NCBI GenBank assembly: GCA_036689375.1
Contig: CP144808.1
Span: 20,927-84,926, forward strand
Source of the DNA: Candidatus Stammera capleta
GTDB taxonomy: Bacteria > Pseudomonadota > Gammaproteobacteria > Enterobacterales > Enterobacteriaceae
Length of the DNA: 64,000 nucleotides
Direction: 5' to 3'
The notes beneath the pieces are model-generated. The model saw only the letters and a list, made by a program, of their open reading frames with translations, was not told the DNA's origin and searched no databases. How positions within the stretch are numbered: position 1 is the stretch's first letter; each line of letters opens with the position of its first letter. The position numbers and the translations under genes are program-made. Shown one piece after another: positions 1 to 64,000 of the stretch.

Positions 1-482
1 ATTTATATATTTTAAAAAAAAAAAATTTTACTATTGTTAAATTAATTTCTCCTAAATCAGGGGAAAATGATATTTTATTTGTTAATTCTATTAATAATAG
101 TTTTATTAATTATGGTAATTTATTTTTTAATGGTATAGGTATATTAGGAAAAATTATTGGATTAAATAAAAATATAGCTGAATTAGAATTAATATGTCAT
201 AAAGGAAGTGGTATTTTGGGTAAAATTTTTAGAAATAATATGGAAGTAGTTGTTTTAGGTTTTGGTTGTTTAAATGATATGAAAATATATGATATTCCTT
301 TTAATTCTGATATTAAAAAAGGAGATATTATTATTACTTATTCTTTAAATTCTAGTATTTTTGTTAATTATCCTATAGGTATAATTAAAAATGTTTATTT
401 AGACAAAAATTGTGGTTGTATAAAAGCTAATGTTAAATCATTTATTAAATATAATAAGTTAGAATTTGGTATTTTAATTTAA
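1..482 (+). CDS. mreC: Rod shape-determining protein MreC, C-terminal part (5' end outside window)
   Basis: Frame 3 is open from the window edge to TAA 480-482. The C-terminal region is MreC-like (GDIIITYS...YPIGIIKNV) and is followed by mreD as in mreBCD. Confidence 0.75.
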   Translation, partial: LYILKKKNFTIVKLISPKSGENDILFVNSINNSFINYGNLFFNGIGILGKIIGLNKNIAELELICHKGSGILGKIFRNNMEVVVLGFGCLNDMKIYDIPFNSDIKKGDIIITYSLNSSIFVNYPIGIIKNVYLDKNCGCIKANVKSFIKYNKLEFGILI

Positions 483-511
483 ATTAATTATATAAATATA
501 ATTTTAAAAAA

Positions 512-1015
512 ATGTTTTTAAATTCTATATATAGTAGGTATAATATTTGTTGTTTTTTATTTATTTTATTTATTTTATGAATTTTTTTTAGTTTTTTAGA
601 TTTTTTTATAAAAAAAATATATATATATCCTTCTTTTTTAAATATTTTTTATATTTATATTATATTTTTTTATTTAAGTAATGTTAAATGTTTTTTTTTT
701 AATTTTTTATTTGGTTTTTTAGTTGATGTATTATTTGGATGTATATTAGGTAAAAATATTTTAATATATTTATTATCTTTTTATATAATTTCATATATTA
801 AATTTAATTTTTTTTATTTGTTAAATATAGAAATTTTTTTTATTGTTTTATTTTTTAATTTTTTTTTAAATTTTTTTTCTTTAATTTTTAATTGTTTTTT
901 ATTAAATTATAAATTTAATTTTTGTTTTATTTTTAATGTTTTTTTAGATACTTTTTTATGGTTTTTTATAATTAATTTATTATTTAATAATAAATTTTTT
1001 AAAAATTATTATTAA
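512..1015 (+). CDS. mreD: Rod shape-determining protein MreD
   Basis: 167-codon hydrophobic ORF if TGA 578-580 is read as Trp. Contains the MreD-like motif GFLVDVLFGCILGKN and lies directly after mreC. Confidence 0.7.
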
Positions 1016-1027
1016 ATAAGAGGTTTT

Positions 1028-2479
1028 ATGTTTAAAAATATAGTTTATGAAGATATTTTATTTAAAAATAAAATTTCTGAAGATAATTTGTTTAATATTT
1101 TATCTGATTTATCTTTTAATAATAATATATATAGTGAAATTTATTTTCAAAATTTAATTTTGGAGAATTTTTATTTAGAAAATAAAATATTAAAAAATAA
1201 TTTTTTGAAAAATATTAATGGTTTAAGTGTTCGTATTATTGATAATGAAAAAACTTATTTTTCTTATTCTAATGAAATAAATTTAAATTCTTTAATAAAA
1301 TGTGTAAATAAAGTAAAATTATTTTGTTCAAATAAAAATATTAATAAAAAAATAAATTTGAATTTTTATAATTATTTATTTAATAATTATGAAAGTTTTT
1401 CTTCTATTGATTTTAATTTAAGTAAATCAAAAATAGATTTATTATTATATTTAGATAATTTTATTAGAAAGAAAAGTTTATTTGTTAACTATATTGGTAT
1501 AAATTTAATAAATAATTATGAAATTATTTTAATTATTTCTAATGATGATGTTTTTATTGGTGATATAAGACCTTTAGTAAATATTTTTTTTAAAGTTCAA
1601 GTTGAAAAAAATTATATTAAAGGAATTGGTATATGCAGTGGAGGTGGTAGATATTCTTATGAAAATTTATTAAATAAGATTTATAATGGGGTTTCTTTTG
1701 TAGAATATTTAGCAAATGAATCTTTAAGAATAGCTGAGAATAATTTAAATGCTGTAATTCCTTCTGCTGGATCTATGCCTATAGTTTTAGGATCTGGATC
1801 TCCAGGAATTTTATTTCATGAAGCTGTTGGTCATGGTTTAGAAGGTGATTTTATTAGAAAAAAATCTTCTGTTTATTCAGATTTTTTAAATAAAAAAGTT
1901 GCTTCTAGTTTATGTACGATAATTGATGATGGTACTATATATGGTTTAAGAGGTTCATTAAATATAGATGATGAAGGTGTTTTATCTAAAAAAAATGTTC
2001 TTATTAAAAATGGTATTTTAAAATCTTTTATGTTTGATAAGTTAAATTCTAAATTATTAGGTTTTAATAGTACAGGAAATTCTAGAAGAGAATCTTATGC
2101 ACATTTACCTTTACCTAGAATGACTAATACATATTTATTGCCTGGTAGTAATAATTTTTGTGATTTAATTAATAGTGTTGATTATGGTTTATATATTGTT
2201 AGTTTATTAGGAGGTCAAGTTGATATTACATCTGGTAAATTTGTTTTTACTGTTTTAGAAGGTTATTTAATTAAAAATGGATTAATTTCTAAACCTATAA
2301 AAGGTGTTACATTAATAGGATCAGGAATTGAAATTATGAATAATATAACTATGATTGCAAATGATTTAAAATTTGATTATGGATCTGGTACTTGTGTTAA
2401 AGATAATCAAAGTATTCCTGTTGGTGTTGGTCAACCTTCTTTAAAAATAAGTTCTATGATTGTTGGTGGTATAAATTAA
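1028..2479 (+). CDS. tldD: Metalloprotease TldD
   Basis: Uninterrupted 483 aa ORF with the HEAVGHGLEGD zinc-protease motif and a TldD-like C-terminal half. A GAGG Shine-Dalgarno sequence lies upstream. Confidence 0.9.
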   Translation: MFKNIVYEDILFKNKISEDNLFNILSDLSFNNNIYSEIYFQNLILENFYLENKILKNNFLKNINGLSVRIIDNEKTYFSYSNEINLNSLIKCVNKVKLFCSNKNINKKINLNFYNYLFNNYESFSSIDFNLSKSKIDLLLYLDNFIRKKSLFVNYIGINLINNYEIILIISNDDVFIGDIRPLVNIFFKVQVEKNYIKGIGICSGGGRYSYENLLNKIYNGVSFVEYLANESLRIAENNLNAVIPSAGSMPIVLGSGSPGILFHEAVGHGLEGDFIRKKSSVYSDFLNKKVASSLCTIIDDGTIYGLRGSLNIDDEGVLSKKNVLIKNGILKSFMFDKLNSKLLGFNSTGNSRRESYAHLPLPRMTNTYLLPGSNNFCDLINSVDYGLYIVSLLGGQVDITSGKFVFTVLEGYLIKNGLISKPIKGVTLIGSGIEIMNNITMIANDLKFDYGSGTCVKDNQSIPVGVGQPSLKISSMIVGGIN

Positions 2480-2499
2480 TTATGTATTAATGGATATAT

Positions 2500-4684: not shown

Positions 4685-6239
<1,555 letters not shown>

Positions 6240-6281
6240 TTAAATAATATTTTGCAGGCGTTTATATATTTATTTTATTGT

Positions 6282-6353
6282 GTCCTCTTCGTCTAAAGGA
6301 TAGGACATCGCTCTTTCACGGCGATAACAGGGGTTCGAATCCCCTAGAGGACG
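6282..6353 (+). tRNA. tRNA-Glu (anticodon UUC), rrn spacer tRNA
   Basis: Near-identical to E. coli tRNA-Glu. Anticodon loop CTTTCAC, acceptor GTCCTCT/AGAGGAC plus G. No encoded CCA. Confidence 0.95.
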
Positions 6354-6355
6354 TT

Positions 6356-6372
6356 TTTTGTTCTTTTAAAAT
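6356..6372 (+). promoter_or_regulatory. boxA-like element in the 16S-23S spacer
   Basis: Exact copy of the 17-mer at 4577-4593, located between the spacer tRNA-Glu and 23S as in E. coli rrn operons. Confidence 0.5.
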
Positions 6373-6401
6373 TTTGTATTTAAGACATTTTTAGGTTGCG
6401 A

Positions 6402-9324
<2,923 letters not shown>

Positions 9325-9346
9325 CGCAACCTAAAAATGTTTTATA

Positions 9347-9459
9347 TTTCTGGCGGTAATAGCATAATAGAACCACCTGAAACCATTTCGAACTCAGAAG
9401 TGAAATGTTATAGCGCTGATGGTAGTGTATTTACGCGAGAGTAAGACGCTGCCAGGGAT
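9347..9459 (+). rRNA. rrf: 5S ribosomal RNA (shortened terminal hairpin)
   Basis: CTGGCGG...CCACCTGA..CGAACTCAGAAGTGAAA...GATGGTAGTGT...GCGAGAGTA..CTGCCAGG aligns with E. coli 5S. The GGGGTCTCCCCA hairpin is replaced by ATTTA. Confidence 0.9.
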
Positions 9460-9463
9460 TTAT

Positions 9464-9537
9464 GGTACGGTAGTTCAGTTGGTTAGAATATCAGCCTGTC
9501 ACGCTGGAGGTCACGGGTTCGAGCCCCGTTCGTACCG
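9464..9537 (+). tRNA. tRNA-Asp (anticodon GUC), distal rrn tRNA
   Basis: Anticodon loop CTGTCAC and T-arm GGGTTCGAGCCCC. Similar to E. coli tRNA-Asp. Followed by T11, with no encoded CCA. Confidence 0.95.
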
Positions 9538-9554
9538 TTTTTTTTTTAAAAAAA

Positions 9555-10695: not shown

Positions 10696-11634
10696 ATGAA
10701 TAATGATATTAAAGTTTTTTGTATATTAGGTCCAACTGGAATTGGTAAAACTTTAATGATTATGGAATTATATAATTTATTACCTTTTCCTATAGAAATA
10801 ATTAGTGTTGATTCTGGATTAATTTATAGAGATATGAATATAGGAACTGCTAAACCTTCTAAGAAAGAATTATTTATTTATCCTCATAAATTAGTTAATA
10901 TTTTAGATCCTAAACAATCATATTCTGTTAGTAATTTTTTTTATGATGTTAAAAAAGAAATATATTGTGCTTTTTTAAATAAAAAAATACCAGTTCTTGT
11001 TGGTGGAACAATGATGTATTATAATGTTTTATTTAATGGATTATATGATATTCCTAGTATAAATAGTAATATTCGTAATTATATTACTAATTTATTTAAT
11101 AAATATGATTGTAAAAGTATTTATAATTTTTTTAAAAAGATAGATTATGATTCTGCTAAAAATATTCATTTTAATGATAAATATAGAATTATTAGAAATT
11201 TAGAAGTTTTTTTTTCTACTAAAAAAAATATGTCTTTTTATAAGAAAAAAAAAGTTTTTATAGAATTTAATATTTATAAAATAATAATTTTATATAAAAA
11301 TAAAAATAAATTATTTTTAAATATAAAAAATAGATTTTTAAATATGTTGAATATTGGTTTTGAAAAAGAAGTTAGAAATTTATATAATAGAAAAGATTTA
11401 AATATTAATATGTCTTCTATGAAACGTATTGGTTATAATCAAATGTGATTATATTTTGATAAAAAAATAAGTTATAAGCAAATGATTAATTTAAGTATAA
11501 AAAATACTAATTATTTAGTAAAAAAACAAATTACTTGATTAAAAAAATGATTAAAATTTTCTAAAGTTATATATTTTTATAATTATAATAGTTGTATAAA
11601 TAAAATTTATAAATTTATTAAAAATAGTATTTAA
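10696..11634 (+). CDS. miaA: tRNA dimethylallyltransferase
   Basis: GPTGIGKT P-loop. GYNQMW and KKQITW-LKKW match MiaA GYRQMW and KRQITWLRGW, with TGA at all three Trp positions. Confidence 0.9.
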
Positions 11635-15042: not shown

Positions 15043-15052
15043 ATTATATTAT

Positions 15053-15137
15053 TACCCAAAGCGGGATTCGAACCCGCACAGTTTTGTATAACTGAGGGAT
15101 TTTAAGTCCCTTGTGTCTACCATTCCACCATTTGGGC
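15053..15137 (-). tRNA. tRNA-Leu (anticodon UAA), long variable arm
   Basis: The reverse complement GCCCAAATGGTGGAATGGTAGACACAAGGGACTTAAAATCCC... matches E. coli leuZ-type tRNA. No encoded CCA. Confidence 0.93.
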
Positions 15138-15160
15138 AGTTTTTATATATTATTTATATT

Positions 15161-15232
15161 AAGCGTGTCCCGGAATTGAACCGGGATTATATGGATTTGC
15201 AATCCAGTGCATTACCTGTCTGCCAACACGCT
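15161..15232 (-). tRNA. tRNA-Cys (anticodon GCA)
   Basis: The reverse complement has anticodon loop TTGCAAA, acceptor AGCGTGT/ACACGCT and T-loop GGTTCAATTCC. Cys then Leu order matches E. coli cysT-leuZ. Confidence 0.9.
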
Positions 15233-15411: not shown

Positions 15412-15780
15412 ATGTCTACAATAAATCAATTATTACGTAAATCTCGTTTAAAAAAAAACATTAAAAATAATGTTCCTGCTTTAAATGGTTGTCCTCAAAA
15501 AAGAGGTGTATGTATAAAAGTTTATACTACTACTCCTAAAAAACCAAATTCGGCTCTTAGAAAAGTTTGTAGAGTTCGTTTAACAAATAATTTAGAAGTT
15601 ACAGCTTATATACCTGGAGAGGGTCATAATTTACAAGAACATTCTGTTGTATTAATTAGAGGTGGAAGAGTAAAAGACCTTCCAGGTGTTCGTTATCATG
15701 TAATTAGAGGATCTTTAGATTGTAGTGGTGTAAAGGATAGAAAAAGATCTAGATCGAAATATGGAGTTAAAAAAAATTAA
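15412..15780 (+). CDS. rpsL: 30S ribosomal protein S12
   Basis: [10 protein letters not shown]...[18 protein letters not shown]...[17 protein letters not shown] matches S12. Confidence 0.97.
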
Positions 15781-15811
15781 ATGGATATTTATTTATTATG
15801 AGGATTATTTA

Positions 15812-16282
15812 ATGTCTCGTCATAGTGTTTTTAATAATAGAAAAATTGTTTCTGATTATATATATAATTCTAAATTAGTTTCTAAATTTATAAATATATT
15901 AATGTTTGATGGAAAAAAATCTATTGCTGCAAATATTTTATATAAATCTTTAAATATTATTTCTAAAAAAATTAAAAAAGATGGTTTAGATTTATTAAAA
16001 TTAGCATTAAATAATGTTAAACCTATAGTTGAAGTTAAATCTAGAAGAGTTGGTGGTACTACATATAAAATTCCAGTAGAGGTTAGACCATCAAGAGGTT
16101 ATACTTTAGCTATACGTTGAATTATTTTTTCTGCTAGAAAAAGATATAAAAAAAAAATGTTTTTAAATTTATCTGATGAATTATTGGATGCAATAAATAA
16201 AAAAGGTTTATCTATTAAAAAACGTGATGAAATTCATCGTATTGCTGAATCTAATAAAGCTTTTGCTCATTATAGATGATAA
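15812..16282 (+). CDS. rpsG: 30S ribosomal protein S7
   Basis: ATG 15812. [21 protein letters not shown] and LAIRW-II motifs. Ends ...AFAHYRW with the terminal Trp as TGA 16277-16279, then TAA. Confidence 0.95.
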
Positions 16283-16309: not shown

Positions 16310-18439
16310 ATGTCTCGTATTACATCTATATTAAATTATCGTAATATTGGTATTAGTGCTCATATTGATGCTGGAAAGACTACTTTAACTGAGCGAATTT
16401 TATTTTATACTGGTATTAATTATAAATTAGGTGAAGTTCATGATGGAACAGCTACAATGGATTGAATGGAACAAGAACAAGAAAGAGGTATTACTATAAC
16501 TTCTGCTTCTACTACTACTTTTTGGTCTGGTATGTTTAAACAATATATTAATCCATATAGAATAAATATTATAGATACCCCAGGTCATGTAGATTTTACT
16601 GTTGAAGTAGAAAGATCTATGAGAGTATTAGATGGCGCTGTTATGGTATATTGTGCTGTTGGTGGAGTTCAACCTCAATCTGAAACTGTTTGGAAACAGG
16701 TTAATAAATATAATGTTCCTCGTATTGCTTTTGTAAATAAAATGGATCGTGTTGGATCAGATTTTTTTAATGTAATAGATGATTTAAAAAATAAATTTAA
16801 TATTTTTGTTTTACCTATTCAGTTACCTATAGGATCAGAAGATAAATTTTCTGGAGTTATTGATTTAATTAAAGAAAAATTTTTTATTTGAAATAATAAT
16901 AATTTTGGATTAAATTATAGTACACATAATATTAATAAAAAAAATGATTTTTATGATTCTTTTATTTTTTGAAGAAATAAAATTATTGAATTAGTTGCTG
17001 ATTATTCAGATGATTTTACAAATAAATATTTAAATGGTGAAAATTTTAGTGAAAAAGAAATAAAATTAGTTTTAAGAAAAAAAGTTTTGAATAATAGTAT
17101 TTTATTAGTTACATGTGGATCTGCTTTTAAAAATAAAGGTATTCAATGTTTATTAGATTGTGTAGTTGATTATTTACCTTCTCCTAAAGATATAGGTAAA
17201 ATATATGGTTTAAATATTAAAAATAATGATAATATTTGTCGTCTATCTTCTGAATCAGAATCTTTTTCTTCTTTGGCTTTTAAGGTTACTAATGATCCAT
17301 TTGTTGGAAATTTAACTTTTTTAAGAGTTTATTCAGGATTTATTAAATCAGGAAATACTGTTTTAAATTCTACTACTAATAAAAAAGAAAGAATTGGTCG
17401 TATAGTTCAAATGCATGCTAATAAAAAGGAGGAAATTAGAGAGGTTTTTGCTGGAGATATAGCTGCTGCTATTGGATTAAAAGATGTTGTTACTGGTGAT
17501 ACTTTGTGTGATATTAATAATCCTATTTTATTAGAAAAAATAAAATTTCCTAATCCAGTAATTTCTGTTTCTATTGAACCAAAAACTAAATTAGATCAAG
17601 AAAAAATGGGTATTGCTTTATCTCGTTTAACAAAAGAAGATCCTACATTTAAAAGTTTTTTTGATAAAGAATCTAATCAAACAATAATATCTGGTATGGG
17701 TGAATTACATTTAGAAATTATAGTTGATAGAATGAAAAGAGAATTTAATGTAAATTGCAATATCGGTAAACCTGAAGTTGCTTATAGAGAAACTATATTA
17801 AATAGTATTAAAAATATTGAAGGTAAATATATAAAACAAACTGGAGGAAGAGGACAATATGGACATGTTGTTATTGATTTATTTCCTTTATTAGAATCAG
17901 AAATATCTAAGTCTAAAAATGGTTATTTATTTGTTAATAATATAAAAGGTGGTGTTATTCCAAATGAATATATACAATCTATAGATAAAGGAATACAAGA
18001 ACAATTAAGATGTGGTCCTTTAGCTGGATATCCAGTGGTTAATATAAAAGTTAGATTATTTTTTGGATCATATCATGATGTTGATTCTTCAGAAATAGCA
18101 TTTAAAATGGCTGCTTCAATTGCTTTTAAAAAAGCTTTTTTAAAAGCTCAACCTATTTTATTAGAACCAATCATGAAAGTGGATGTTGAAACTCCAGAAT
18201 CTTATATGGGTAATGTTATAAGTGATTTAAATCGTCGTAGAGCAATTATAGATGAAATAAATGATATTAATTTAGGAAAATTGATTAAATCTTATGTTCC
18301 TTTATCAGAAATGTTTGGTTATGCAACTGATTTAAGATCTCAAACTCAAGGAAGAGCTTTATATTCTATGGAATTTTATAGATATAAGGTTACTCCTGGA
18401 TATATTTGTGAAAAAATAGTAAAATTACGTAATAATTAA
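16310..18439 (+). CDS. fusA: Elongation factor G
   Basis: [10 protein letters not shown]-loop and [16 protein letters not shown] with TGA at 16463-16465. Three in-frame TGA join the ORF-track pieces in one frame to give 709 aa. Confidence 0.97.
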
Positions 18440-25894: not shown

Positions 25895-26200
25895 ATGACA
25901 AAAAAATCAATATTAGCTCGTGAAAAAAAAAGAAAAATTTTATCAAAAAAATTTTATTCAATAAGAATGAAATTAAAAAAAATTATTTCTAATGTTAATA
26001 TTTCTAATAAAGATAGATGAAAAGCAGTTATTAAGTTACAATCTTTACCAAGAGATTCAAGTATTATTAGACAACGTAATAGATGTAGACAAACTGGCAG
26101 ATCTCATGGATTTTTAAGAAAATTTGGTTTGAGTAGAATTAAATTTCGTGAATTTGCTGTAAATGGTGATATTCCTGGATTAAAAAAATCTAGTTGATAA
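25895..26200 (+). CDS. rpsN: 30S ribosomal protein S14
   Basis: [39 protein letters not shown]...GLKKSSW. The terminal conserved Trp is TGA 26195-26197, followed by TAA. Confidence 0.95.
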
Positions 26201-27535: not shown

Positions 27536-27548
27536 TATATGGTTTTTT

Positions 27549-32876: not shown

Positions 32877-33971
32877 ATGATTAGACCTATATTTAAAACT
32901 TTTAATATAAAAAATTTTAAGAATAATTTTTCTTTAATTAATAAATTTTCTTATAATAAAAAATTATGAATTGTTGTTAAAGCTGATGCTTATGGTCATG
33001 GTATAAAAAATATATATAAATTTTTATATAATAAAATATATGGTTTTGCTGTTGTTAGTATTGAAGAAGCAATTTTATTACGTGATTTAGGTTTTGATAA
33101 ATATATTTTATTATTGGAAGGATTTTTTGATATTAAAGAAGTTTATTTATGTTTAAAATTTAATTTTGTTGTTGTTATTCATAATATTTGACAAATAAAT
33201 ATTTTAAAAAAAATAAAAAATTTTTCAAATAAATTAAATGTTTATTTAAAATTTAATAATGATTTAAATAGATTAGGTTTTGATATAAAATATATTAAAA
33301 AAACTTATTTTTTGTTAAAAAATATAAATATAATAAATAGTATTGGTTTAATTTTTCATTTATCTAAATCTGGTAAATATGATTCTAAAAATAATTATAT
33401 TATTAATTATAATAAAATAATGAATTTTAATTTATATTTTAATGATATATCTATTTTTAGTTCATCTGGTTTAATATGACATTTAAATAATATTTTTACA
33501 AATTCTGTTAGAATAGGAATATTATTATATGGAGGTTCTCCTACTGGAGATTTTAATGATATAAAGAAATATGGTTTTAAACCTGTTATAACTTTTAATA
33601 GTAGAATTATTAGTATTAGAAAAGTAAAGTCTGGAAATTTTGTTGGTTATAATGGTAGTTATTTTTTTAGAAAATCTACTATTTTAGGAGTAGTATGTTG
33701 TGGTTATGCTGATGGTTATCCTAGACAATTATCTAATAATTCTTTTGTTTTAGTAAATAATAATTTTAAAGCTAAAATAGTAGGATTTATATCTATGGAT
33801 ATGTTAATTATAGATTTATTAGATAATAAATATATAAATATTGGTGATATTGTTGAATTATGAGGTGAAAATATTTATATAGATTATATAGCTAAATTAG
33901 CTAACACAATTAGTTATAATTTAATGTGTTCTATAAATAATAAAAGAGTAAAATTTGAGTATAAATATTAG
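32877..33971 (+). CDS. alr: Alanine racemase
   Basis: The PLP site W-IVVKADAYGHG, LLLEGFF, GILLYGGSP, GYADGYPR, ISMDM and GDIVELW-GEN are collinear with E. coli Alr. Four in-frame TGA. Ends at TAG 33969-33971. Confidence 0.88.
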
Positions 33972-33975
33972 TAAA

Positions 33976-34833
33976 ATGTTTACTTTTCAAAAAGTAGTTT
34001 CATTATTATTTAAATTTTGGTCTAATTTAGGTAGTAGTATTATTCAACCTTTTGATATTGAAATTGGAGCTGCTACTTTTCATCCAATTACTTTTTTTAA
34101 TTCTATTAATAAAAATAATATATTTTTTTGTTATTTACAATTATGTAGAAGACCTAGTGATAGTAAATATGGTAAAATATTTAATAAATTTCAACAATAT
34201 TATCAATTTCAAGTTATAAAAAAACCTTTTAATAATAATTTACAAAATATATATATAGATTCTTTAAAGTTTTTAGGAATTGATTTAAGAATTAATGATA
34301 TAAGTTTTATTGATGATAATTGAGAAAATCCAACTTTAGGAGCTTATGGAATTGGATGAGAAGTTTGATTAAATGGAATAGAAATAACTCAATTTACTTA
34401 TTTTAAACAAATGGCTGGTTTTGAGTGTATTCCTTCAGTTGTTGAAATTACTTATGGTTTAGAGCGTATATTAATGCATTTACAAAATGTATATAATATT
34501 AAAGATTTAATATGAGATAATAATATTTTTGGTGTTATAAAATATAATGATGTAGTTTTTTTTAATGAAATAGAAAAGTCTTTTTATAATTTATGTTATT
34601 CTGATACGAAATTTTTAATTAATTCTATAATTAATTATGAAAATCAATGTTTGAAATTAATTTCATTTAAAAAACCATTAATAATTTCTTCTTATGAATT
34701 TGCAATTAAAATTGTTAATTATTTTAATTTGTTAGATGCAAGAGAATATTTTTCTTATTTAGAAAGACAAAGTTTTATTTTACGTATAAGAAATTTATTT
34801 AATAATATAGCTAAAATTTATTTAAAATATTAA
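33976..34833 (+). CDS. glyQ: Glycine--tRNA ligase alpha subunit
   Basis: [31 protein letters not shown] and ITYGLERI match GlyQ. Four TGA lie at conserved Trp positions. Confidence 0.95.
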
Positions 34834-39229: not shown

Positions 39230-39230
39230 A

Positions 39231-40298
39231 TTATTTTTTTTTAGTTGACATAATTATTCCAAATATTGACATATTACTAATTAATGAAGTTCCTCCATAA
39301 CTAATTAATGGTAATGGTATTCCTACTACAGGTAATAATTCAATAATCATACCAATATTTATTAATATTTGTATTATAAAATTTATTATAAAATTTGATA
39401 TTAATATAGAATTATATATGTTATTATCATTTATTGATATTGAAATTAATTTTAAAATTAATATTATATATATTATTATTAAAAAACATATTCCTATAAA
39501 TCCGTGTTCTTCTGCTATTACAGTAAATATAAAATCTGTTTTATTTTCTGGTATAAATTTTAATTGTGATTGTGTTCCTTTAAATATTCCTTTTCCATAT
39601 TTTCCTCCAGAACCTATTGCTATTTTTGATTGATGTGTATGATATCCACTATTTTTTATATTTTTTTTATTATATTTTATTAATGTTAATATTCTTTTTT
39701 TTTGATAATTATGTAGTAAAAATTTTCATGATATTGGTATAGATAATATAAAAATTATAAATAAGAATAAAATTATTTTTTTGTTTATTCCATTTAAAAA
39801 AAATATAATTATTAAATTTAATAATATTAATATTGATGTTCCTAAATCTGGTTGTAAATATATTAAATAACTAGGAATAAGAGTTATTATAATAGGATAA
39901 ATTATATTATATATTGTTAATAAATGAATTTTACTAGTTATTTTATTTATAATTATTGGTATTATTATTTTTGTTATTTCTGATGGTTGAAATTTTATAA
40001 ATCCTAAATTTATTCATCTTTGAGCTCCTTTTATTATATATCCATTTATTAAAATTATTATTAATAAAATTATATTTATAAAATAAAATATTTCTATATT
40101 TTTTTTATAAAAATCTATTTCAAATTTTTTAATAATAATCATTATAATTATACTTAATATTATATGAAAAATTCTTTTAAATATTATATCTATATTTTGA
40201 TTATTAGCACTATATAATATTAATATACTATATAATAGTAATATTATTATACATATTAATATAGTTATATCTAGTTTTTTAAATATATTTTTAATCAT
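39231..40298 (-). CDS. mrdB: Peptidoglycan glycosyltransferase RodA (SEDS family)
   Basis: Polytopic membrane protein with GAQRW-INLG..FQPSEI.K and LPVVGIPLPLISYGGTS motifs. Overlaps the mrdA stop by 8 nt. Confidence 0.88.
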
Positions 40299-42069
40299 AT
40301 TTATTTATATTTTTCATAATAAAATCTGTTATTTTTTTCATAATTAATCCTATTTTTTGTTTTTTATTTCCTCCATGATCAAGTATTATTGTTATTGCAA
40401 ATTTTGGATTTTCATATGGTAAAAATGCATTCATTAAAATATGATCTTTAAATTTTTTTTTAATTTTATTATTTTTATATCTTTCATTATTTTTTATTGA
40501 TATTATTTGAGCTGTCCCTGATTTAGCTGCTATTTTATATTTTGTTCCTATAAAATATATATATGCAGTTCCATTTTTTTTATGAATTACTCCATACATT
40601 GCTTTTTTAATTATATCTCAATATTTTTTTTTTATATTATTTATTTTTTTTTCAAATGAATAATTTATTTTTTTATTATTTATTTTTTTTATTATATGAG
40701 GTTTTATTGATTTTCCATTATTTATTAATGTAACTAAAGCTTTGTTTATTTGAATAGGAGTAGCATTTAAATATCCTTGTCCTATTCCAATTGATATTGT
40801 ATCTCCTATATATCATTTTTTTTTAAAATTTTTATATTTTCATTTTTTATTTGGTAAAAAATTTTTTTTTTCGTTTGGTAAATCTATATTTGTTTTTTCT
40901 CCATATCCAAATAATTTTATTCATTTTGATATTTTTTCTATTCCTAAGCTATAAGATATTTGATAATAAAATATATCTGATGATTCTTCTATTGATTTAG
41001 TTATATTTACTAAACCATGTCCTCATTTATTTCAATCATAAAATATTTTTTTTGATTTTGGTATTTTCCATCATCCTGGATCAAGTATTTTTGAATTTTT
41101 TTTTATTATTTTTTTTTTTAATGCATATATAGCTATATATGGTTTTATTGTAGAAGCTGGAGGATATGTTAATTGTATTGTTTTATTTATTAATGGTTTA
41201 TTTTTATTTTTTAATATTTTTTTATATTCTTTATTATTTTTTTTTATAAAAATATTTGGGTTGTATCCAGGTATAGAGATTAAAGATAAAATTTCCCCAT
41301 TTTTACAATTACTTATTATTACTGAACATTGATTTTTTTTTAATAGATTATATATGAATTTTTGTAAATTTAAATCTATTGATAAAGTAATATTTTTTCC
41401 AGCTTTTTCTAATTTTATATATTTTTTTTTTATAGTATTATTTTTTCCATCTATTATTTTTTCTTTATATCCATTTTTTCCATATAATATATTTTGATAA
41501 TATTTTTCTATTCCTGTTTTTCCTATATAATAGTTTTTTTTTTTTTTTATTACATAACCTATTACATGAGATAAAATATCTTTATATGGATAATATCTAT
41601 TATATTCACTTATTATTTTTATATTTGGAAATAATTTTTTGTATTTATAAAAAATATTTATTTCTTTTAATTTAAGTTTTTTATTTATTTTTATATTTTT
41701 ATATTTTTTTTTATTTTTAAATTTAATTATTATATCTTTAATTATTTTTTTTTTAAATAAAAATATATTTTTTATTTTTTTTATTTCTTTTTTTATATTT
41801 TTTATATTTTTTCTTTTTATTTCTAAAAAATATGTTTTTTTATTATATGCTATTGGTATTCCATTTTTATCGAAAATTCATCCTCTGTGTGGTATAATTG
41901 ATATTATTTTAGTGTAATTATTTTTTGCTAATATATTATAATATTTATTTTTAACTATTTGTAATATATATAAATTATATATTAAATATATTAAAAATAT
42001 TGATAATATTATAAATATTATTTTAAGTCTATTTAAAAATATTTTTTTTTTATTATTTAATAAATACAT
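40291..42069 (-). CDS. mrdA: Penicillin-binding protein 2 (elongation transpeptidase)
   Basis: YPPASTIKP (SxxK) and KSGTAQ. DPGW-WKIP, YDW-NKW-GHG and KKKW-YIGDTISIGIGQGY are collinear with E. coli PBP2. One frame throughout. Confidence 0.9.
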
Positions 42070-45989: not shown

Positions 45990-48764
45990 TTATATAAATT
46001 TTCTTTTTTCTCCTGATCCAATTGTATTTTTAATACATCTATTACATATATTTTCATTTTTTATTTTTATTTTTTTTACATAATGCCAACATCTATTACA
46101 TTTTGTTCCTTTAGTTTTTTTACATATTATTTTAAAAAAATTTTTTTTTATGTTTTCTTTTAATTTTTTTAGTTTTGTTTTTGATGTTAAAAAAAAATAT
46201 TTTAATTCGTTTTTAATTTTTTTAATTTTTGTAAAGAAATTTTTTTTTGTATATAGAATAATTTCTGTTTCTAATGATGAATTTATTTCTTTATTTATTT
46301 TTTTTATTTCTATTATTTTATTTAATTTATTTTTAATTAAAATTAATTTTTCTCATATTTTTTCATTTATTTTATTATTTTTATGCAAAAAAAATAATTT
46401 ATTAAATCATGTTTCATTATATAAATTTTTATTTTTTTTTCTAGGTAAATAATTTCAGATTTCTTCTGCAGTAAATGGTATTATTGGTGTTATTCATTTA
46501 GTTATTGATTCTAAAATCATTCATATTGTTGTTTGTACACTATAATAAGGTATAGTATTTTTTTTTATTGTATATTTTCTATCTTTTATTATATCTATAT
46601 ATAAAGAACTTAGATATTTTGTACAAAAAATATTTATTTTTTTTATTATTTTATTAAATTTAAATTTATTAAATAAGTTTATTATTTTATTTTGAGTTTT
46701 TTTTGTTTTATGTATTATTCATTTATCTATTAATAATATTTGTTTTTTTTTTATTGTTTTTTTTTGGGGGTTAAATTCATCTAAATTAGATACTAAAAAT
46801 TTTATTGTATTTCTTATTTTTCTATATAATTCTACAGTTCTTAATATTATTTCATTAGAAATATGTATTTCATTTTTAAATTTTGTAGATGCTACTCATA
46901 ATCTTAATATATCAGCACCAAATTTATTTATAATATTTTTTGGATTTATTGTATTTTTTAATGATTTAGACATTTTTTTTCCATTTTTATCAACTATAAA
47001 TCCATGTGATATTATTTGTTTAAATGGTGCACAATTATTAATTGCTACATTTATAATTAATGATGACATAAATCATCCTCTGTATTGATCCGATCCTTCT
47101 AAATATAAATCGCTTATATTTTTTTTTTTAAATTTTGGATTAATTATTGAAAAACATGTAGCTCCGGAATCAAATCATATATCTAGTACATCAGTTATTT
47201 TATAGTATTCATTATATTTTTTTTTTAGTATTTTTTTAGTTGATGTATTGAATCAATAATTTATTCCATTTTTTTTTATTTTTTTTATTATTTTATTTAT
47301 TATGTTTATTGTATTTGGATGTATTTTTTTGTTTTTTTTATTTATAAATAATATTATTGGTGTTCCTCATTTTCTTTGTCTTGATATACATCAATCAGGT
47401 CTTTTTATTATCATTTCTTTTATTTTTTTATATCCTCAGGATGGATTCCATTTTACATTTTTAATTGATTTAAGTATATTTTTTTTTAATTTATTATTTA
47501 TTTTTATAAATAATTGTGGTGTTGATCTTATTATTATAGGTGTTTTATGTCTTCAGCAATGAGGATATTTGTGTATTATTTTTTCTTCTAGGATTATTTT
47601 ATTTTTTTTTTTTAGTTCTTTAATTATTATTTTTTCTGATTCATATATATTACAATTATATATATTTTTTATAAAATTATATTTTATATAATTTCCTTTT
47701 TCATTTATTACATTTATTCCTTTTAGATTATTTTTTTTAGATATTAAATAGTCTTCTTCTCCATGTTCTGATGCTATATGTACTATTCCTGTTCCAGTAT
47801 TTATTTTAATTTTTTTATTTAAGATTATTGGTATTTTTTTATTTGATATAGGATGATTTACTAAAATATTATTTAATTTTTTTCCGTTTATTTCTTTAAT
47901 TATTTTTATTTTATTTTTATTAAATATTTTTTTTATATTATTTTTTATAATTATATATATTTTTTTATTAAATTCTATAATTGAATATAAATAGTTTGGA
48001 TGTATTGATATGGCACAATTTCCAGGTATTGTTCATGCTGTAGTTGTTCATATTATTAAGTTTATTTTTTTATTTTTTATTTTTTTAAATATATTATATT
48101 TTTTTATATTTTTTATTGTAAAACATACATATATTGATTTTGATTTTTTATTTAAATATTCTGTTTCTGCATCGGATAAAGATGATTTGCAATTTATACA
48201 TCAGTTTATTGGTTTATTTTTGTATTTTATTAAATTAAGTTTTATTATTTTTTTAAATACTATTATTGTATTAATAATAGTTGATGTATTCATTGTTTTA
48301 TAATAATTTTTTCAGTCTGCAAATATTCCTAATCTTATAAAATCTTTTTTTTGTTTATTAATTTGTATATTTGCATATTCGAAACATTTTTTTTTAAATT
48401 CATTTTTTTTATTTTTAAAATTTGTTTTTTTTTGTATTTCTAATTCTATTGGTAATCCATGACAATCCCATCCTGGTATGTATTGTATATTATAATTCAT
48501 TAGGTTTTTATATTTTAATATTATATCTTTTAATATTTTATTAAAAGCATGTCCTATATGTATTTCTCCATTAGCATATGGAGGACCATCATGGATAATA
48601 AATTTATTTTTATATTTTTTTTTTTTTTTTATTTCTATATATATATTTTTTTTTTTTCATTTTTTTATTATTTGTGGTTCTTTTATATTTAAATTTGCTT
48701 TCATTGGAAAATTTATTTTTGGCAAATTTATATTATATTTATAATTTATGTTTTTTTTTTTCAT
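45990..48764 (-). CDS. ileS: Isoleucine--tRNA ligase
   Basis: [35 protein letters not shown] and the C-terminal zinc knuckle CNRCWHY...[13 protein letters not shown] match IleRS. The middle part was read by eye only. Confidence 0.88.
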
Positions 48765-53236: not shown

Positions 53237-54158
53237 TTTTTTTTTTTAAAATATATTGTGTTTGTATGTGTAGAAATTCATTTGCTATTGTTGCTGCTGT
53301 TAATGATGTTATATTAGATGGGTCATAAATTGGTGATACTTCAACTATATCAATACCTATTATATTTATATTTTTTAGATTTCTTATTATTTTTAATATT
53401 TTATTTATATTAATTCCATTTATTACTGGTGTTCCTGTTCCTGGTGCATATGATGGGTCTAAACAATCTATATCAAAACTTATATATGTTGGATTATTTT
53501 TAATATTTTTTTTTATTTTTTTTAAAATATTTTTGTGTGATGAATTATTTACTTCTTCAGAAGTTATTATTTTAAATGGATGATTTTTTTTTATATATGT
53601 TCTTATTCCTATTTGTATTATATTTGATTTAGATATTAATTTTTCTTTTTTAATTTGGTAAAAAATTGATCCATGATCAAATATATTTTTTTCATAGTAT
53701 GTATCTGTATGTGCATCAAAATGTATTAAAGATATTTTTTTATATTTTTTTTTACATGCTCGTATTATTGGTAGTGTAATATAATGATCTCCTCCTAATA
53801 TTAAAAAATTTTTATTTATTTTTAATATATTTAATATTTTTTTATAAATATTATAATTTAAATTTTTTATATTTCCAGTTTTATATATTAAATCTCCTCC
53901 ATCTACAATTTTTATTGTTTTATTTAATTTAAAATTTCATGGTCATTTATATTTTTCTCATATTAAATGCATTGATTCTATTCTTATACTAGTTGGTGCT
54001 AGTTTACTTCCAGGTTTTCCAGTGCAAGTAATTTCTGATGGTATACCCATTATTATTATATTAAAATTATCTTTTTTTTTGTATTTTTTTTTTATAAATA
54101 AATCAAATCTCATAAATCCAAATATATTTGATATTAATGATATATCTTTTATAGTCAT
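53217..54158 (-). CDS. speB: Agmatinase
   Basis: LIW-EKYKW-PW-NF (E. coli AWEHNRFPWNF), [17 protein letters not shown] and [18 protein letters not shown] metal-site motifs. Confidence 0.9.
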
Positions 54159-54162
54159 TTTT

Positions 54163-55959
54163 TTATTTTAAATATGTTTTTGATAAAAATATTTTTTTTA
54201 TTTTTTTTATTATTTTATTATTTTTTTTATATTTATTTAAAAATTTTTTTATTTGATTATTTTTTATATTTGTTTTTTTAGTAACATTTATTATTGATTC
54301 ATTTAAGTTTATTATTTTTTTTTCATATTTATTATTTTTTTTTATTTTTATTAAGTATGTTTGTAAATTTCCAAATAGATTATGTTTATTACTTAATATA
54401 TTTTGATAAGCTCCAGTCATAAATATTCCTATAAATACTGATTTGTAATTTTTTAAATAAGGTATTTCTAATGAATTAGAAATATAATTTTTTATATTTA
54501 TATAATTGTTTATTTTTCCATCAGAATCACATGTTATGTCAAGTATATTTATTTTTTGATTTTTTTTTTTTTTTAATTTTATTATAGGTAATATTGGAAA
54601 TATTTGATTAGTTCCTCATGAATCTGGAATTGATTGAAATATAGAAAAATTAAGGTGAATTTTTTTTGATATATATAAATTTATATTTTTTAATATATTT
54701 TTTTTTTTAAATATTTTATATTTATATATTTTTTTTAATATTTCTTTATATATATTTTCTATTCATGATTTTTCTATTATATTATATTTACCTATTTTAA
54801 ATTCGTTTTTTATTTTTTTTAAATTTTTTTTTATAAAAAAATTAGATATATATTTTTTTTTTTTAATATTTATTCATATTTTTCATATATTATTTAATAT
54901 TTTATTTTTTTTTTTTATAAATATTTTTTTTATTTTAATTTTTTTATTTTTTTCAATATTATATATATTAGTTATTATAAATTCATGATGTGCTGTTATA
55001 TATCTTCCTGATTCAGTTATTAAATTAGGATGTTTTATTTTATTTTTATTACATATTTTTTTTATTATTTTTATTATATATTTTATATATTTATTTATAT
55101 CATAATTTATATTTTTATTATTACTATATTGTAAAGCTAATCCTCCTCCTATATCTATAATTTTAATTTTTATTTTAAATATTTTTTGTATATCTATATA
55201 TAAATTTATTATTTCTTTTATATATATTATTATATTTTTTATATTTTTAATTTGTGATTCTAAATGACAATGTAAAATTTTTAAATTATTAGTTGTTTTT
55301 TTTTTAATTAATATTTTTATTATTTTTAGTATTTCATTAGATGTTAATCCAAATTTAAATTGAGATTTATTTTTTTTAGGATTTATTTCTAGATTATTTA
55401 ATTTAATTCTTATTCCTATAAAAAAATTTTTTTTTTTTATATATTTTCATAGTAATTTTAATTCTTTTATTTTTTCTATTATTATATATATTTTATGTCC
55501 TATTTTTGTAGCAAGATATGCTATATACATATATATTTTATCTTTGTATCCATTACATAATATTGTTATTTTTTTATTACTATTTATAAGTATAGTTATT
55601 AATTCTGTTTTTGATCCTGATTCTAATCCAATTTTATATTTTTTATTTTTTAATATTGTTTGTATTACATAAGATTTTTGATTTACTTTTATTGGATAAA
55701 TTAAAAAATATTTTCCTTTATAGTTATATTTATTTATATAATAATTAAATTTTTTATTTATTTTATTTGTTTTATCTTTTATTATTTCTGGTATACAAAA
55801 TTTTACAGGTAATTTTTTTTTTATTTCATTTGTTATTATTTTTTTTATTTTTATTTTTTTTTTTTTGTTTTTTATATTTATATTTAAATTACCTTTTTTA
55901 TCTATAAAAAAATATTTTTCAGATCAATTTAATTTTAAATTTTTATTTTTTTTATTCAT
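54163..55959 (-). CDS. speA: Biosynthetic arginine decarboxylase
   Basis: IDIGGGLA, ITESGRYI, FQSIPDSW-GTNQIFPILP, LDITCDSDG and GAYQNILSNKHNLFG are collinear with SpeA. Shorter than the E. coli protein. Confidence 0.87.
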
Positions 55960-56063
55960 TATATTTGAATTTTAGTTTATATTAAAATTGATTTTAACAA
56001 TTATTTAGTATTAATGTATACTTAATTTATATATAATTTATTATTTGTTTGGAGATTTATAAA

Positions 56064-57221
56064 ATGAAAATTTATTATTTTACTTCTGAATCTGTATCTG
56101 AAGGTCATCCTGATAAAATTGCTGATCAAATATCTGATGCTATATTGGATGCTTATATTGAAAAAGATAAATTTGCTAAAGTTGCTTGTGAAACTTATAT
56201 TAAATCAGATTTAGTTGTTGTTGGTGGAGAAATTAATACTTCTGTATTAATAAATGTAGAAAATATTGTACGTAATACTATATATAATATAGGATATACT
56301 GATATTAAAATGGGGTTAGATGCTTATAAATGTTATATATTAAATATTTTAGGTAAGCAATCTCCTGATATAAGTATTGGTATTAATAAAGGAAATTTTG
56401 TTAATCAAGGAGCTGGTGATCAAGGAATTGTTTTTGGTTATGCTACAAATGAAACATATGTTTATATGCCAGCTCCTATATTTTATGCTCATAATTTGGT
56501 TAAGAGACAATCTTATTTAAGAAAAAAAATAAAAAATTCTTGATTATATCCTGATGCTAAAAGTCAGATAACATTTATTTATAAAAATAATTTAATATTA
56601 GGTATTGATAATGTTGTTTTTTCTACTCAACATAGTAAAGATATATCTTTAGATAAATTAAAAGAATATGTTATGGAAGAAATAATATTTAATGTTTTAC
56701 CTAAAAAATGATTAAGTAATAAAACTAAATATTTTATTAATCCAACTGGTAGATTTATAATAGGTGGTCCTATGGGAGATTGTGGTTTAACAGGAAGAAA
56801 AATAATTGTTGATACATATGGAGGTATGTCTAGACATGGTGGAGGAGCTTTTTCTGGTAAAGATCCTTCTAAAACAGATAGATCTGGAGCTTATATTGCT
56901 AGATATATTGCTAAAAATATTGTTGCTGCTGGTTTGGCAGATAAATGTGAAATACAGATATCCTATGCAATAGGAGTATCTGATCCTGTTTCAGTTACAA
57001 TAAATACGTTTGGAACAGAAAAAATTTATATAAAATATATATATAATGCTTTAAATATTTTTTTTAATTTAAAACCTGGTAATATAGCAAAAACATTAAA
57101 TTTGCTTAGACCTATATATTTTAATACATCTTCTTATGGACATTTTGGTAGAAATGAATTTCCTTGAGAAAAAATTGATAAAATAAATGAATTAATTGAA
57201 TTTAAAAATCATTATTTATAA
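56064..57221 (+). CDS. metK: S-adenosylmethionine synthase
   Basis: [63 protein letters not shown] and [16 protein letters not shown] motifs. Three in-frame TGA. Confidence 0.96.
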
Positions 57222-57849: not shown

Positions 57850-58884
57850 ATGAATAGGTTAAATTTATTAAATTTTAATGTAAATGATTTAGAAAAAAAA
57901 ATTTTTTTTAAAAATAAATTTATTTATAATCAAATTATTTATTGAATATATAAAAAATTTTGTTTTAATTTTAAATATATGACTAATATTAGTATAAATA
58001 TTAGAAATATTTTAAATAAAATGTTTAAAATTGATTTACCTAAAGTTGTTAGTTTTAAAAAATCTATTGATAGTTCAATTAAATGATGATTTAATGTTAA
58101 TGATGATATTATAGAGACTGTATATATACCAAGTTTTGGTAGATCTACTTTATGTATTTCAACTCAAGTTGGTTGTGCTATGAAGTGTAAATTTTGTTCT
58201 ACTAGTAAAGGTGAATTTAAAAGAAATTTAAGTGTTGGTGAAATAATAGGTCAAATTTTATTTGTTTGTTATTTTTTATATAAAAATAAAATGAAATGTA
58301 TTACAAATATTGTAATTATGGGTATGGGTGAACCTTTATTAAATTTTTATAATGTTGTAAATTCTGTTAAAATTATGTTAGATAAAAAATTTTTTGGTTT
58401 TTCTAAAAGAAAAATAGTATTATCTACTTCAGGAATTGTTCCTTTTATATATAAATTATATAATTATATTGATATTGTTTTAGTTATTTCATTACATTCA
58501 TCTAATAATAGTATAAGAAATAAAATTATGCCTGTTAATAAAAAATATGATATAATTTCTTTATTGCGAGCGGCTTTTTTTTATGTAAAAAATACTAAAG
58601 CTAGTAAAAATAAAATTAATATTGAATATTTAATGTTAAATAATGTTAATGATGATGTAATTAATGCTTATGAATTATTAAATTTGTTAAAAAATTTTCC
58701 AAGTAAAGTAAATTTGATTCCATTTAATTATATTAATAATTCATGTTTTTCTAGGAGTAGTAAAAAAAAAATGTTATTATTTTTAAATATTTTAAATAAA
58801 AATGGTATTTTTACTTCTATTAGAAATAATAGAGGATTAGATATAAATGCTTCTTGTGGTCAATTGTCAGGTGATTTAAATTAG
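57850..58884 (+). CDS. rlmN: Dual-specificity rRNA/tRNA m2A methyltransferase RlmN (radical SAM)
   Basis: CISTQVGCAMKCKFCST radical-SAM cluster, GMGEPLLN and CGQLSGD motifs. Three in-frame TGA, including the tandem TGA-TGA at 58084-58089. Confidence 0.92.
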
Positions 58885-58913
58885 TTTTATTATAAAATTT
58901 AGTTAAAATTAAT

Positions 58914-59345
58914 ATGAATAATATAAAGTTAGATTCTTTAGGTAAAATTTTAGTTAAAGCTCGCGAATTAATGAATTTAAAAAAAAAAGATATTGCTGAT
59001 AAATTGTGTCTTAAATTAAATGTTATTGATTCTATAGAAAATGATAAAGTTCCTAATAATATATCTTTAGTTTTTTTTTGTGGGTATATTCGTTCTTATG
59101 CTCGTTTAGTTAAAGTTCCTGAAGATAAAATAATTTGTTTTTTAGATAGGTATAAATATAATGATTATTTAGATAAAAAAAATGTAAAAAAATCCTTTTA
59201 TTTTAAAAATAATTGTTATTTTTATATAAAAATTTTTATTTTTATAAAATTATTTTTTTTATTGACTTTAGGATTTTTTTATTTTAAAAATAGAATTATT
59301 AATAATAATAAAGATTTTATTTTTGTAATGGAAAATGATAAATAA
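58914..59345 (+). CDS. rodZ: Cytoskeleton protein RodZ, truncated (HTH domain and one TM helix only)
   Basis: DKLCLKLNVIDSIENDKVP...FFCGYIRSYARLVKVPEDKI matches the RodZ N-terminal domain. One hydrophobic helix, then a stop. rlmN-rodZ synteny is kept. Confidence 0.75.
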   Translation: MNNIKLDSLGKILVKARELMNLKKKDIADKLCLKLNVIDSIENDKVPNNISLVFFCGYIRSYARLVKVPEDKIICFLDRYKYNDYLDKKNVKKSFYFKNNCYFYIKIFIFIKLFFLLTLGFFYFKNRIINNNKDFIFVMENDK

Positions 59346-62150: not shown

Positions 62151-62154
62151 AAAT

Positions 62155-62545
62155 ATTTATTTGGTAATCGCTATTTTAAATATAATAGAGGAAAGTCCGG
62201 GCTCCATAGGATGGGATGCCAGATAACGTCTGGAAATATATATTAGTATATATTATGAAAAGTGCAACAGAAAATAACCGCCGAAAGGTAAGGGTGAAAA
62301 AATATCTTAAGAAAATATTATATATTATAGTAATATAATATATGTGTAAACTCCATCTGGAGCAAGGTTATAAATAAAATATTAAGTATTTTAACATTAA
62401 TGTATTTATCCATACATATATTTAATTATTTTATGGTATACTGCTTGAGTTAATAAGTGATTATTAATCTAGATTAATGGTTACCTTATTGTATATTTAT
62501 ATACAATAAACAGAACCCGGCTTATAAATAATTATTTTTATTTGT
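62155..62545 (+). ncRNA. rnpB: RNase P RNA (type A), with AT-rich replaced peripheral helices; ends approximate
   Basis: Conserved blocks GAGGAAAGTCCGGGCTCCATAGG, GCCAGATAACGTCTGG, AGTGCAACAGAAAA, ACCGCC, GGTAAGGGTGAAA, GTAAACTCCATCTGGAGCAAGG, CTGCTTGAG and ACAGAACCCGGCTTA occur in E. coli rnpB order. Confidence 0.88.
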
Positions 62546-62666
62546 TAATATAATTATTTTTATTAAATTATTATATTTGTAATTTTATTTTTATTATATT
62601 TTATTATAATTATATAATTTATTTTATTAAAATTATAATTTATATATAAAAAAGTTTTAATAATAT

Positions 62667-64000
62667 ATGTTGAAAATATTTAATACATTAAGTAAAAAAA
62701 AAGAAGTTTTTATACCTAGAAATAAAAATAAGGTTAATATATATGTTTGTGGTGTTACTATATCTAATTATTGTCATATAGGTCATGGTCGTACATTTTA
62801 TTTTTTTGATATTTTAATAAGATATTTAATATATTTAGGATATAAGTGTAATTATATTCGTAATATTACTGATATTAGTGATAAATTAATAAATAATATA
62901 AAAAATATTGATGATTTTAAAATATTATCAAATACTATGATAAATAGTATGAATAATGATTTTTTAAATTTAGGTTTTTTAAAACCTAATTTTGAACCAA
63001 AAATAAGTGATAATATTAATTTAATTATTTTTTATATAAAAAAATTATTAAATAATAATTATGCTTTTATAGACTCATATGGAAATATTTTATATAAAAA
63101 TAAAAAAAGAAATGGTAATAATTTTATATTATGAAAAATTATTAATAATAAAAATAAAGAAAATTTTTTTAGAGGATGAAATTCTCCTTGAGGAAATGGT
63201 ATTCCTGGTTGACATATAGGATGTTGTGTTTTAAGTAATTATTATTTATCTAATATTGATATTCATGGTGGAGGTTTAGATTTATTATTTCCTCATCATG
63301 AAAATGAAATTTTGTTATCTGAATATATTTTTAAAAATAAAAATTTTGTAAATTATTGAATTCATTCAGGATTAGTTTTATATAATAATTGTAAGTTATC
63401 TAAATCTGTTAATAATTATTTTTTAATAAATGATATATTAAAAATGTATCATGTAGATGTTGTTAAATATTTTTTAATGTCAACTCATTATAGAAAAAAA
63501 ATATTTTTTAGTTTAGATAAATTAGATTTTTATAAAACAGTAATTAATAAGTTATATTTTTCTTTAAAAGATTTAAATTTAAATATTAATTTTTTAAAAA
63601 GTGATTTAAAATATTTTATTGAATTTGATGATCGTTTTATTAAATTTATGAATGATGATTTTAATATTCCTAAAGTATATAGTATTATTTTTTATATGAT
63701 TAATGAAATTAATAGACTTAAAAAAAAAAATAAATATATTTTAGCTAGTAAATTAGGTATTAAAATGTGTAATTTATTAAAGATAATAGGTTTATTAAAT
63801 TCAAATATAGAAGATTATTTTAAAAATAAAAAAATTTTAGATATTAGATTTGTAAATTTTAATATAATTAATAAAATAAAAAAATTAATAAAAATAAGAA
63901 ATATTGCTCGTTTAAAAAAAAGATGAAATATTGCTGATTATATTCGTAAAAGATTAAAAAAAAATAATATTTTTTTAATAGATTATAAAAAAAAAAATTT
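62667..64000 (+). CDS. cysS: Cysteine--tRNA ligase (3' end outside window)
   Basis: [59 protein letters not shown] and KLSKS motifs. The frame is still open at position 64000. Confidence 0.94.

Follow-up and report, generated by a model that had tools for sequence, protein, structure and literature searches.

The stretch of DNA analysed here (positions 1 to 64,000; hereafter the window) is a 64-kb segment of the ~283-kb chromosome of a strain of Candidatus Stammera capleta, an extracellular, pectin-digesting gut symbiont of tortoise beetles, and has a G+C content of 19%. We put the probability at about 95% that this chromosome uses translation table 4, with UGA as a sense codon for tryptophan (Trp) and UAA and UAG as the only terminators. 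An earlier note on this DNA had proposed that UGA stands for Trp in the whole window, and the computed evidence bears this out: in-frame TGA codons fall on Trp positions of Escherichia coli proteins, no gene end uses TGA, and TGA and TGG are exchanged between Stammera strains. The reassignment in Stammera is real, statistically overwhelming and already known since 2017. The recoding itself adds no new biology, Stammera being a textbook table-4 symbiont and one of the known cases of Codetta. The mechanistic question is how a tRNA-Trp with a CCA anticodon and a normal stem serves a genome in which about nine tenths of the Trp codons are UGA.

In-frame TGA codons and gene ends

Codon identities were derived from a six-frame translation of the window in which TGA was rendered as X and the frames were split at TAA and TAG; the resulting pieces were aligned to E. 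coli K-12 orthologues contained in 13 reference stretches. Because unfiltered six-frame tblastn against E. coli yielded antisense and off-frame shadow matches that polluted the codon table (e.g. 35 TGA on '*' and 22 on Cys), only the best non-overlapping alignment per region was retained, giving 65 alignments with 16,736 aligned codons. Counts over the full gene set refer to 70 gene frames across the whole window (18,750 codons), read with TGA as sense. These frames contain 129 TGA and 16 TGG in frame but neither TAA nor TAG, while off-frame the same genes hold 3606 TAA, 1059 TAG and 758 TGA. Thus, TGA alone is tolerated in frame, despite the higher off-frame abundance of TAA and TAG. The Trp codon totals may be off by one or two, because the mechanical open reading frame starts of rpsG and rpsE precede the starts of E. 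coli homology (15812 and 27573, respectively), and the extra N-terminal stretches (15761-15811 and 27507-27572), which are probably untranslated, contain one TGG each. The earlier estimate of TGA sites "on the order of a hundred" agrees well with the computed 129. The accompanying statement that nearly every conserved gene is cut by TGA was overstated, as an in-frame TGA occurs in 47 of the 70 genes (67%); among the 23 genes that lack it are tuf, dnaJ, tldD and many of the short genes for ribosomal proteins.

Read with the standard code, these 47 genes would appear as truncated, with just 44% of the residues in the 70 frames ahead of the first TGA, so annotation pipelines must use table 4 for this window. 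Superficially, this picture resembles a degenerating symbiont in which the TGA codons terminate translation and decay is turning the genes into pseudogenes. Such decay would also have brought TAA and TAG codons as well as frameshifts into the genes, and not a single in-frame TAA or TAG is present. Moreover, the frames run collinear with E. coli up to the orthologous stop, 87% of TGA codons occupy Trp columns, and TGA positions are conserved between Stammera strains. A pseudogene origin is therefore practically ruled out, and we rejected it on the basis of the Trp columns, the orthologous ends and the lack of in-frame TAA and TAG.

In the alignments to E. coli, 99 of 114 in-frame TGA codons (87%) lie on Trp, a residue that makes up 0.97% of the aligned E. 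coli residues (binomial P ~1e-181 for at least 99 of 114), and chance is therefore excluded. All 13 aligned TGG codons lie on Trp too. For 61 of the 62 observed codons, the residue most often aligned is that of the standard code or, with TCT and TTC (n = 12 for the latter), a trivially noisy near-tie, which leaves TGA as the sole codon departing from the standard code, with UAA and UAG absent in frame. The nucleotide following TGA (A 0.47, T 0.29, G 0.18, C 0.07) is distributed as after all codons, i.e. no context signal was seen. Recodings of UGA to other amino acids exist elsewhere in bacteria, namely in Gracilibacteria and Absconditabacteria, and UGA encodes selenocysteine in many bacteria. 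Here, however, glycine (table 25), cysteine or selenocysteine would be an even more far-fetched reading than gene decay, given that none of the 114 aligned TGA codons falls on Gly and none on Cys, and that TGA interchanges between strains with TGG and not with GGN or TGY. For selenocysteine, 129 sites across 47 genes in 64 kb would far exceed any selenoproteome. These readings were likewise rejected.

The genes in which the Trp assignment can be followed site by site are:
45990..48764, minus strand: ileS, the most TGA-rich gene, with 19 TGA and 3 TGG; 18 of the 19 TGA lie on Trp of E. coli IleRS
16310..18439, plus strand: fusA (EF-G), three TGA, each opposite an E. coli Trp (16463, 16889, 16970), and two TGG (16523, 16691)
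33955..34833, plus strand: glyQ, four TGA, each opposite an E. coli Trp (34321, 34357, 34366, 34513), and one TGG (34018)
62667..64000, plus strand: cysS, cut by the window end, six TGA at 63132, 63177, 63189, 63210, 63357 and 63924
40291..42069, minus strand: mrdA (PBP2), eight TGA and one TGG

About 15 of the 19 TGA sites in ileS are also Trp in the IleRS structures of the Firmicutes Priestia megaterium and Staphylococcus aureus, according to a manual reading of the alignments, and the conserved Trp positions thus hold well beyond E. coli. In EF-G, the stretch spanning UGA codons reads ATMDWMEQEQER. An adjacent TGA-TGG pair in mrdA (41073/41070) aligns to Trp-Trp in E. coli, and both codons therefore serve the same residue next to each other. 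In cysS, five of the six TGA codons are on E. coli Trp, while that at 63177 is opposite an alignment gap adjoining a Trp. With this one exception, the TGA codons that the earlier note had located are all in frame and directly opposite E. coli Trp (EF-G 16463; GlyQ 34321, 34357 and 34366; CysS 63189 and 63210; S3 23096 and 23108; L2 22188; SecY 29047; PBP2 41034 and 41025), and the TGG codons that it named in EF-G (16523), L16 (24042) and IleRS (48470) are correct as well.

Gene ends, which were analysed in the window only (~23% of the genome), point in the same direction. Among 63 valid ends anchored by E. coli orthologues, 57 use TAA, six TAG and none TGA. In most cases, the TAA or TAG that closes a frame coincides with the stop of the E. 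coli gene, the tails being 1-4 codons long on either side. A seventh apparent TAG end was discarded, as the alignment behind it is antisense, overlies the tRNA-Gly gene and marks no gene end. Nowhere in the window does a gene depend on TGA for its termination. Three genes end in a tandem TGA TAA, i.e. tsaE (10516-10521) and two ribosomal protein genes:
15761..16282, plus strand: rpsG (S7), start probably near 15812; final sense codon TGA, then TAA (16277-16282)
25895..26200, plus strand: rpsN (S14), final sense codon TGA, then TAA (26195-26200); tail length as in E. coli S14

Their terminal TGAs are sense codons that happen to come last. Since the standard code would cost these proteins one residue only, the ends of tsaE, rpsG and rpsN look intact under either code. 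Such ends would be compatible with an ambiguous UGA, being mostly read as Trp and still terminating some genes via residual RF2, similar to the transitional state of Providencia siddallii PSAC. The retention of prfB in some code-4 Stammera assemblies (10.64898/2026.05.24.727570) and the four- to fivefold more frequent retention of TGG in ribosomal protein and elongation factor (EF) genes, which fits UGA as the poorer codon, would also agree with ambiguity. However, no anchored gene end requires TGA. The terminal TGA of rpsG falls on the conserved Trp of E. coli ...HYRW (K-12 S7 extends further), and the terminal TGA of rpsN corresponds to the C-terminal Trp of E. coli S14. Internal TGA codons in 67% of the genes, among them 19 in the essential ileS, are incompatible with appreciable termination at UGA, and the transitional PSAC has UGA in only 20% of its genes (PMC10540940). 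Ambiguous decoding is thus improbable, though less so than the two readings rejected above, and we retain UGA as an unambiguous Trp codon.

Codon usage and decoding of UGA

TGA accounts for ~89% of all Trp codons in the window (129/145). The corresponding TGG/(TGA+TGG) ratio of 0.10 is close to the share of the G-ending codons AAG, GAG, CAG and TTG in their respective pairs (0.05-0.08). A comparison of Trp sites with Stammera chromosome CP062308.1 yielded 62 sites with TGA in both strains, six with TGA here and TGG there, four with TGG here and TGA there, and one with TGG in both. TGA and TGG thus behave as would any two synonymous codons that are close to mutational equilibrium in a genome rich in AT, which indicates an old and complete reassignment. 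The remaining TGG codons are unevenly distributed. Of the aligned Trp codons, seven of 30 are TGG in genes for ribosomal proteins and EFs compared to six of 97 elsewhere (odds ratio (OR) 4.6, P = 0.013), a weak signal for which P becomes 0.04 once the overall surplus of G-ending codons in these genes (OR 1.37) is taken into account. Their positions are:
Ribosomal protein and EF genes (7 TGG vs 23 TGA): 16523, 16691, 19010, 20361, 20860, 22293, 24042
Other genes (6 TGG vs 91 TGA): 29410, 34018, 41070, 46088, 47450, 48470
In this small sample, the enrichment may be the footprint of a less efficient decoding of UGA by a tRNA-Trp with a CCA anticodon.

Several points weigh against this account of UGA as a Trp codon or against its proposed mechanism. 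The 15 aligned TGA codons on other residues (Ala 3, Leu 3, Ile 2, one each on Gln, Val, Glu, Thr, Tyr and Phe, and one on a gap) are expected at variable positions, and they are no proof of Trp insertion. Changes in rRNA that cause UGA suppression were considered as an explanation and rejected, because all sites checked are the same as in E. coli. The overall identity to E. coli is 86% for 16S and 83% for 23S rRNA (4685-9325). The unchanged sites comprise the 530 loop core, h34 with C1054, h44 and the anti-Shine-Dalgarno sequence in 16S rRNA, as well as 1051-1108 (G1093), H69, 2548-2562 (U2555), the peptidyl transferase centre and the sarcin-ricin loop in 23S rRNA. Hence, the ribosome itself gives no explanation of UGA decoding. 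Neither tRNA-Trp nor prfB was found in the window, as the earlier note had stated, nor in ~124 kb of other Stammera sequence (CP062308.1 1-84,253 and CP144843.1 54,017-84,966), which together with the window covers only ~30% of a genome; lysS was likewise not found in these two stretches. Finally, the presence of prfB in some code-4 assemblies mentioned above means that the loss of RF2 is not certain in the present strain.

The rRNA operon of the window also bears on the location of the tRNA-Trp gene:
4685..9538, plus strand: rRNA operon with 16S, tRNA-Glu(UUC), 23S, 5S and tRNA-Asp(GUC), rrnC-like layout
In E. coli, trpT follows aspT in rrnC. Here, trpT is missing and the start of orn lies 17 nt past tRNA-Asp. 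A rearrangement has broken up the ancestral location of trpT, which must lie elsewhere.

What is said here of prfB and of the tRNA-Trp sequence in the present strain relies on the literature on the species. Stammera has been reported to keep a tRNA-Trp with a CCA anticodon and to lack prfB, with 15.4% G+C and UGA in 62% of its coding sequences (Manzano-Marin et al. 2023, PMC10540940 Table 2). This tRNA has an ordinary 5-bp anticodon stem (2026 NAR paper, PMC13092985), and code-4 Stammera strains never carry tRNA-Trp(UCA) (2026 preprint, 10.64898/2026.05.24.727570). According to the same preprint, prfB was lost in most Stammera genomes. A tRNA-Trp(UCA), which many but not all table-4 organisms have, is, judging from these sources, probably lacking in the present strain, as in Zinderia. 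The anticodon that had been predicted in the earlier note, "UCA or a modified equivalent", survives only in its second half, and the predicted absence of prfB applies to the type genome and most other Stammera genomes, but not to some code-4 assemblies and a basal clade that keep the gene.

RF1 reads only UAA and UAG. If RF2 is lost or ineffective, as Stammera literature and knowledge of termination suggest, UGA would meet no competitor in the ribosomal A site, and a single tRNA-Trp with anticodon CCA could read it via a C-A mismatch at the wobble position. Wild-type E. coli tRNA-Trp reads UGA at a low level by C-A wobble and does so more with changes in the D arm, e.g. G24A. E. coli genetics further indicates that the modification i6A37 promotes UGA reading by tRNA-Trp. 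MiaA introduces it into the tRNAs for UNN codons, which include tRNA-Trp, and the miaA gene is retained in the window:
10696..11634, plus strand: miaA (tRNA dimethylallyltransferase), three TGA; 38% identical to E. coli MiaA (E = 3e-56)
i6A37 supplied by this enzyme may help the CCA tRNA-Trp to read UGA, and AT-biased mutation would then have converted most TGG to TGA. The tRNA-Trp variants A9C and G24A are mentioned in PMC13092985. The retained miaA, the unchanged rRNA decoding sites and the preference for TGG in highly expressed genes are hints from the window on this mechanism, and they do not settle it. Tentatively, and with considerable doubt, one might suppose that a tRNA-Trp with a CCA anticodon and a 5-bp stem reads the ~89% UGA Trp codons by C-A wobble or through an undescribed modification or editing of C34, at a measurable cost and in a code that is still being optimised. 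If so, the excess of TGG in genes for ribosomal proteins and EFs would be a trace left by selection on this near-cognate genetic code.

Gene content of the window

The 70 gene frames, the rRNA operon, five tRNA genes and the RNase P RNA gene (rnpB) together cover 95.9% of the bases. The window contains a partial mreC followed by mreD, tldD, rplM-rpsI, rpsF-rpsR-rplI, orn, tsaE, miaA, hflX, rlmB and fmt-def. It also holds the str, S10, spc and alpha operons together with alr, glyQS, mnmA, dacA, rodA, mrdA, pgi, rpsT and rsmA. A VTT/DedA-like gene, ileS, dnaKJ, glyA, speBA, metK, tsaB, rlmN, rodZ, hisS, der and a partial cysS complete the set. Apart from tRNA-Glu and tRNA-Asp of the single rRNA operon, the tRNA genes are:
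15052..15232, minus strand: tRNA-Leu(UAA) and tRNA-Cys(GCA), neither of them tRNA-Trp
10111-10183: tRNA-Gly(GCC), the fifth tRNA of the set (Glu, Asp, Gly, Leu, Cys)

All 4-kb bins show a positive GC skew, and 60 of the 70 genes are on the plus strand, which places the window on a single replichore. The right end of the window, with cysS followed by folD, tRNA-Arg(UCU) and lon, maps within a few kb of position 1 of CP062308.1.

Stammera strains and other UGA = Trp systems

In a scan with one genome per species, the best relative by IleRS was Stammera CP062308.1 with 91% amino-acid identity, while IleRS of a second Stammera chromosome, CP144843.1, is 57% identical. At the DNA level, the window is 93.6% identical to CP062308.1 over 22.8 kb, with collinear gene order from glyS to rlmN, and several window proteins translated with table 4, including DnaK, Der, CysS and TldD, match database protein entries exactly; these entries derive from the source chromosome and from Logan assemblies of run SRR23946972. 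The window strain is close to, yet distinct from, CP062308.1, and is none of the strains that represent the species in GTDB: the source chromosome measures 282,761 bp compared to 283,359 bp, and ten Trp sites differ in TGA or TGG. In-frame TGA is common to 39 sites of the window and CP144843.1, so the latter uses code 4 as well. CP144843.1 lacks dacA-rodA-mrdA, speB-speA-metK and rlmN-rodZ at the syntenic places (window 38045-42069, 53217-57221 and 57850-59345), where mnmA adjoins pgi, glyA adjoins tsaB and tsaB adjoins hisS, respectively. Genes for the cell wall, cell shape and polyamine/S-adenosylmethionine (SAM) metabolism thus differ between Stammera lineages. A tmRNA gene with the tag peptide VAKNNSYALAA lies outside the window, at 15347-15694 of the CP062308.1 flank stretch, next to an unannotated gene of 154 amino acids that is probably smpB. 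Trans-translation appears to be retained in this ~283-kb genome.

The reference set for Stammera consists of Salem et al. 2017, CP062308.1 and about 50 genomes in Garcia-Lozano et al. The G+C content of the window lies inside the published Stammera range of 13.9-20.4%, and the share of genes with TGA (67%) is similar to the 62% published (PMC10540940). The reassignment of UGA to Trp in Stammera is credited to Salem et al. 2017 in the citing passages of PMC8629427, PMC10540940 and the 2026 preprint. PMC8629427 further includes Stammera among the known lineages with UGA Stop->W, and Codetta recovered the case. Stammera genomes are routinely annotated with code 4 (10.1101/2023.12.12.571295). The earlier note had described the recoding as known from Mollicutes and a few tiny insect symbionts and did not identify the present DNA as one of the named cases. 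Within the same named species and symbiosis, a basal clade of five genomes has kept prfB and the standard code (10.64898/2026.05.24.727570); UGA is not Trp there, while it clearly is in the window.

Among other lineages, Hodgkinia cicadicola and Nasuia deltocephalinicola (both Candidatus) and the Mycoplasmatales share with Stammera the reading of UGA as Trp and the loss of RF2. They carry, however, a tRNA-Trp(UCA) that pairs with UGA directly, which Stammera reportedly never does. Candidatus Zinderia insecticola is more similar in this respect, being a tiny AT-rich insect symbiont with UGA as Trp, a lost prfB and a CCA tRNA-Trp (PMC10540940). It is a betaproteobacterium, and its tRNA-Trp(CCA) has a 4-bp anticodon stem in contrast to the 5-bp stem of Stammera (PMC13092985). 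Experiments in eukaryotic translation systems have established that a 4-bp anticodon stem lets tRNA-Trp(CCA) read UGA (PMC13092985). Candidatus Providencia siddallii PSAC is, like Stammera, a symbiont within the Enterobacterales that reads UGA as Trp with a tRNA-Trp(CCA) (PMC10540940). PSAC is transitional, as prfB is present (itself with UGA), UGA occurs in 20% of genes and about nine genes seemingly stop at UGA, whereas in the window UGA occurs in 67% of genes and none stops at it.

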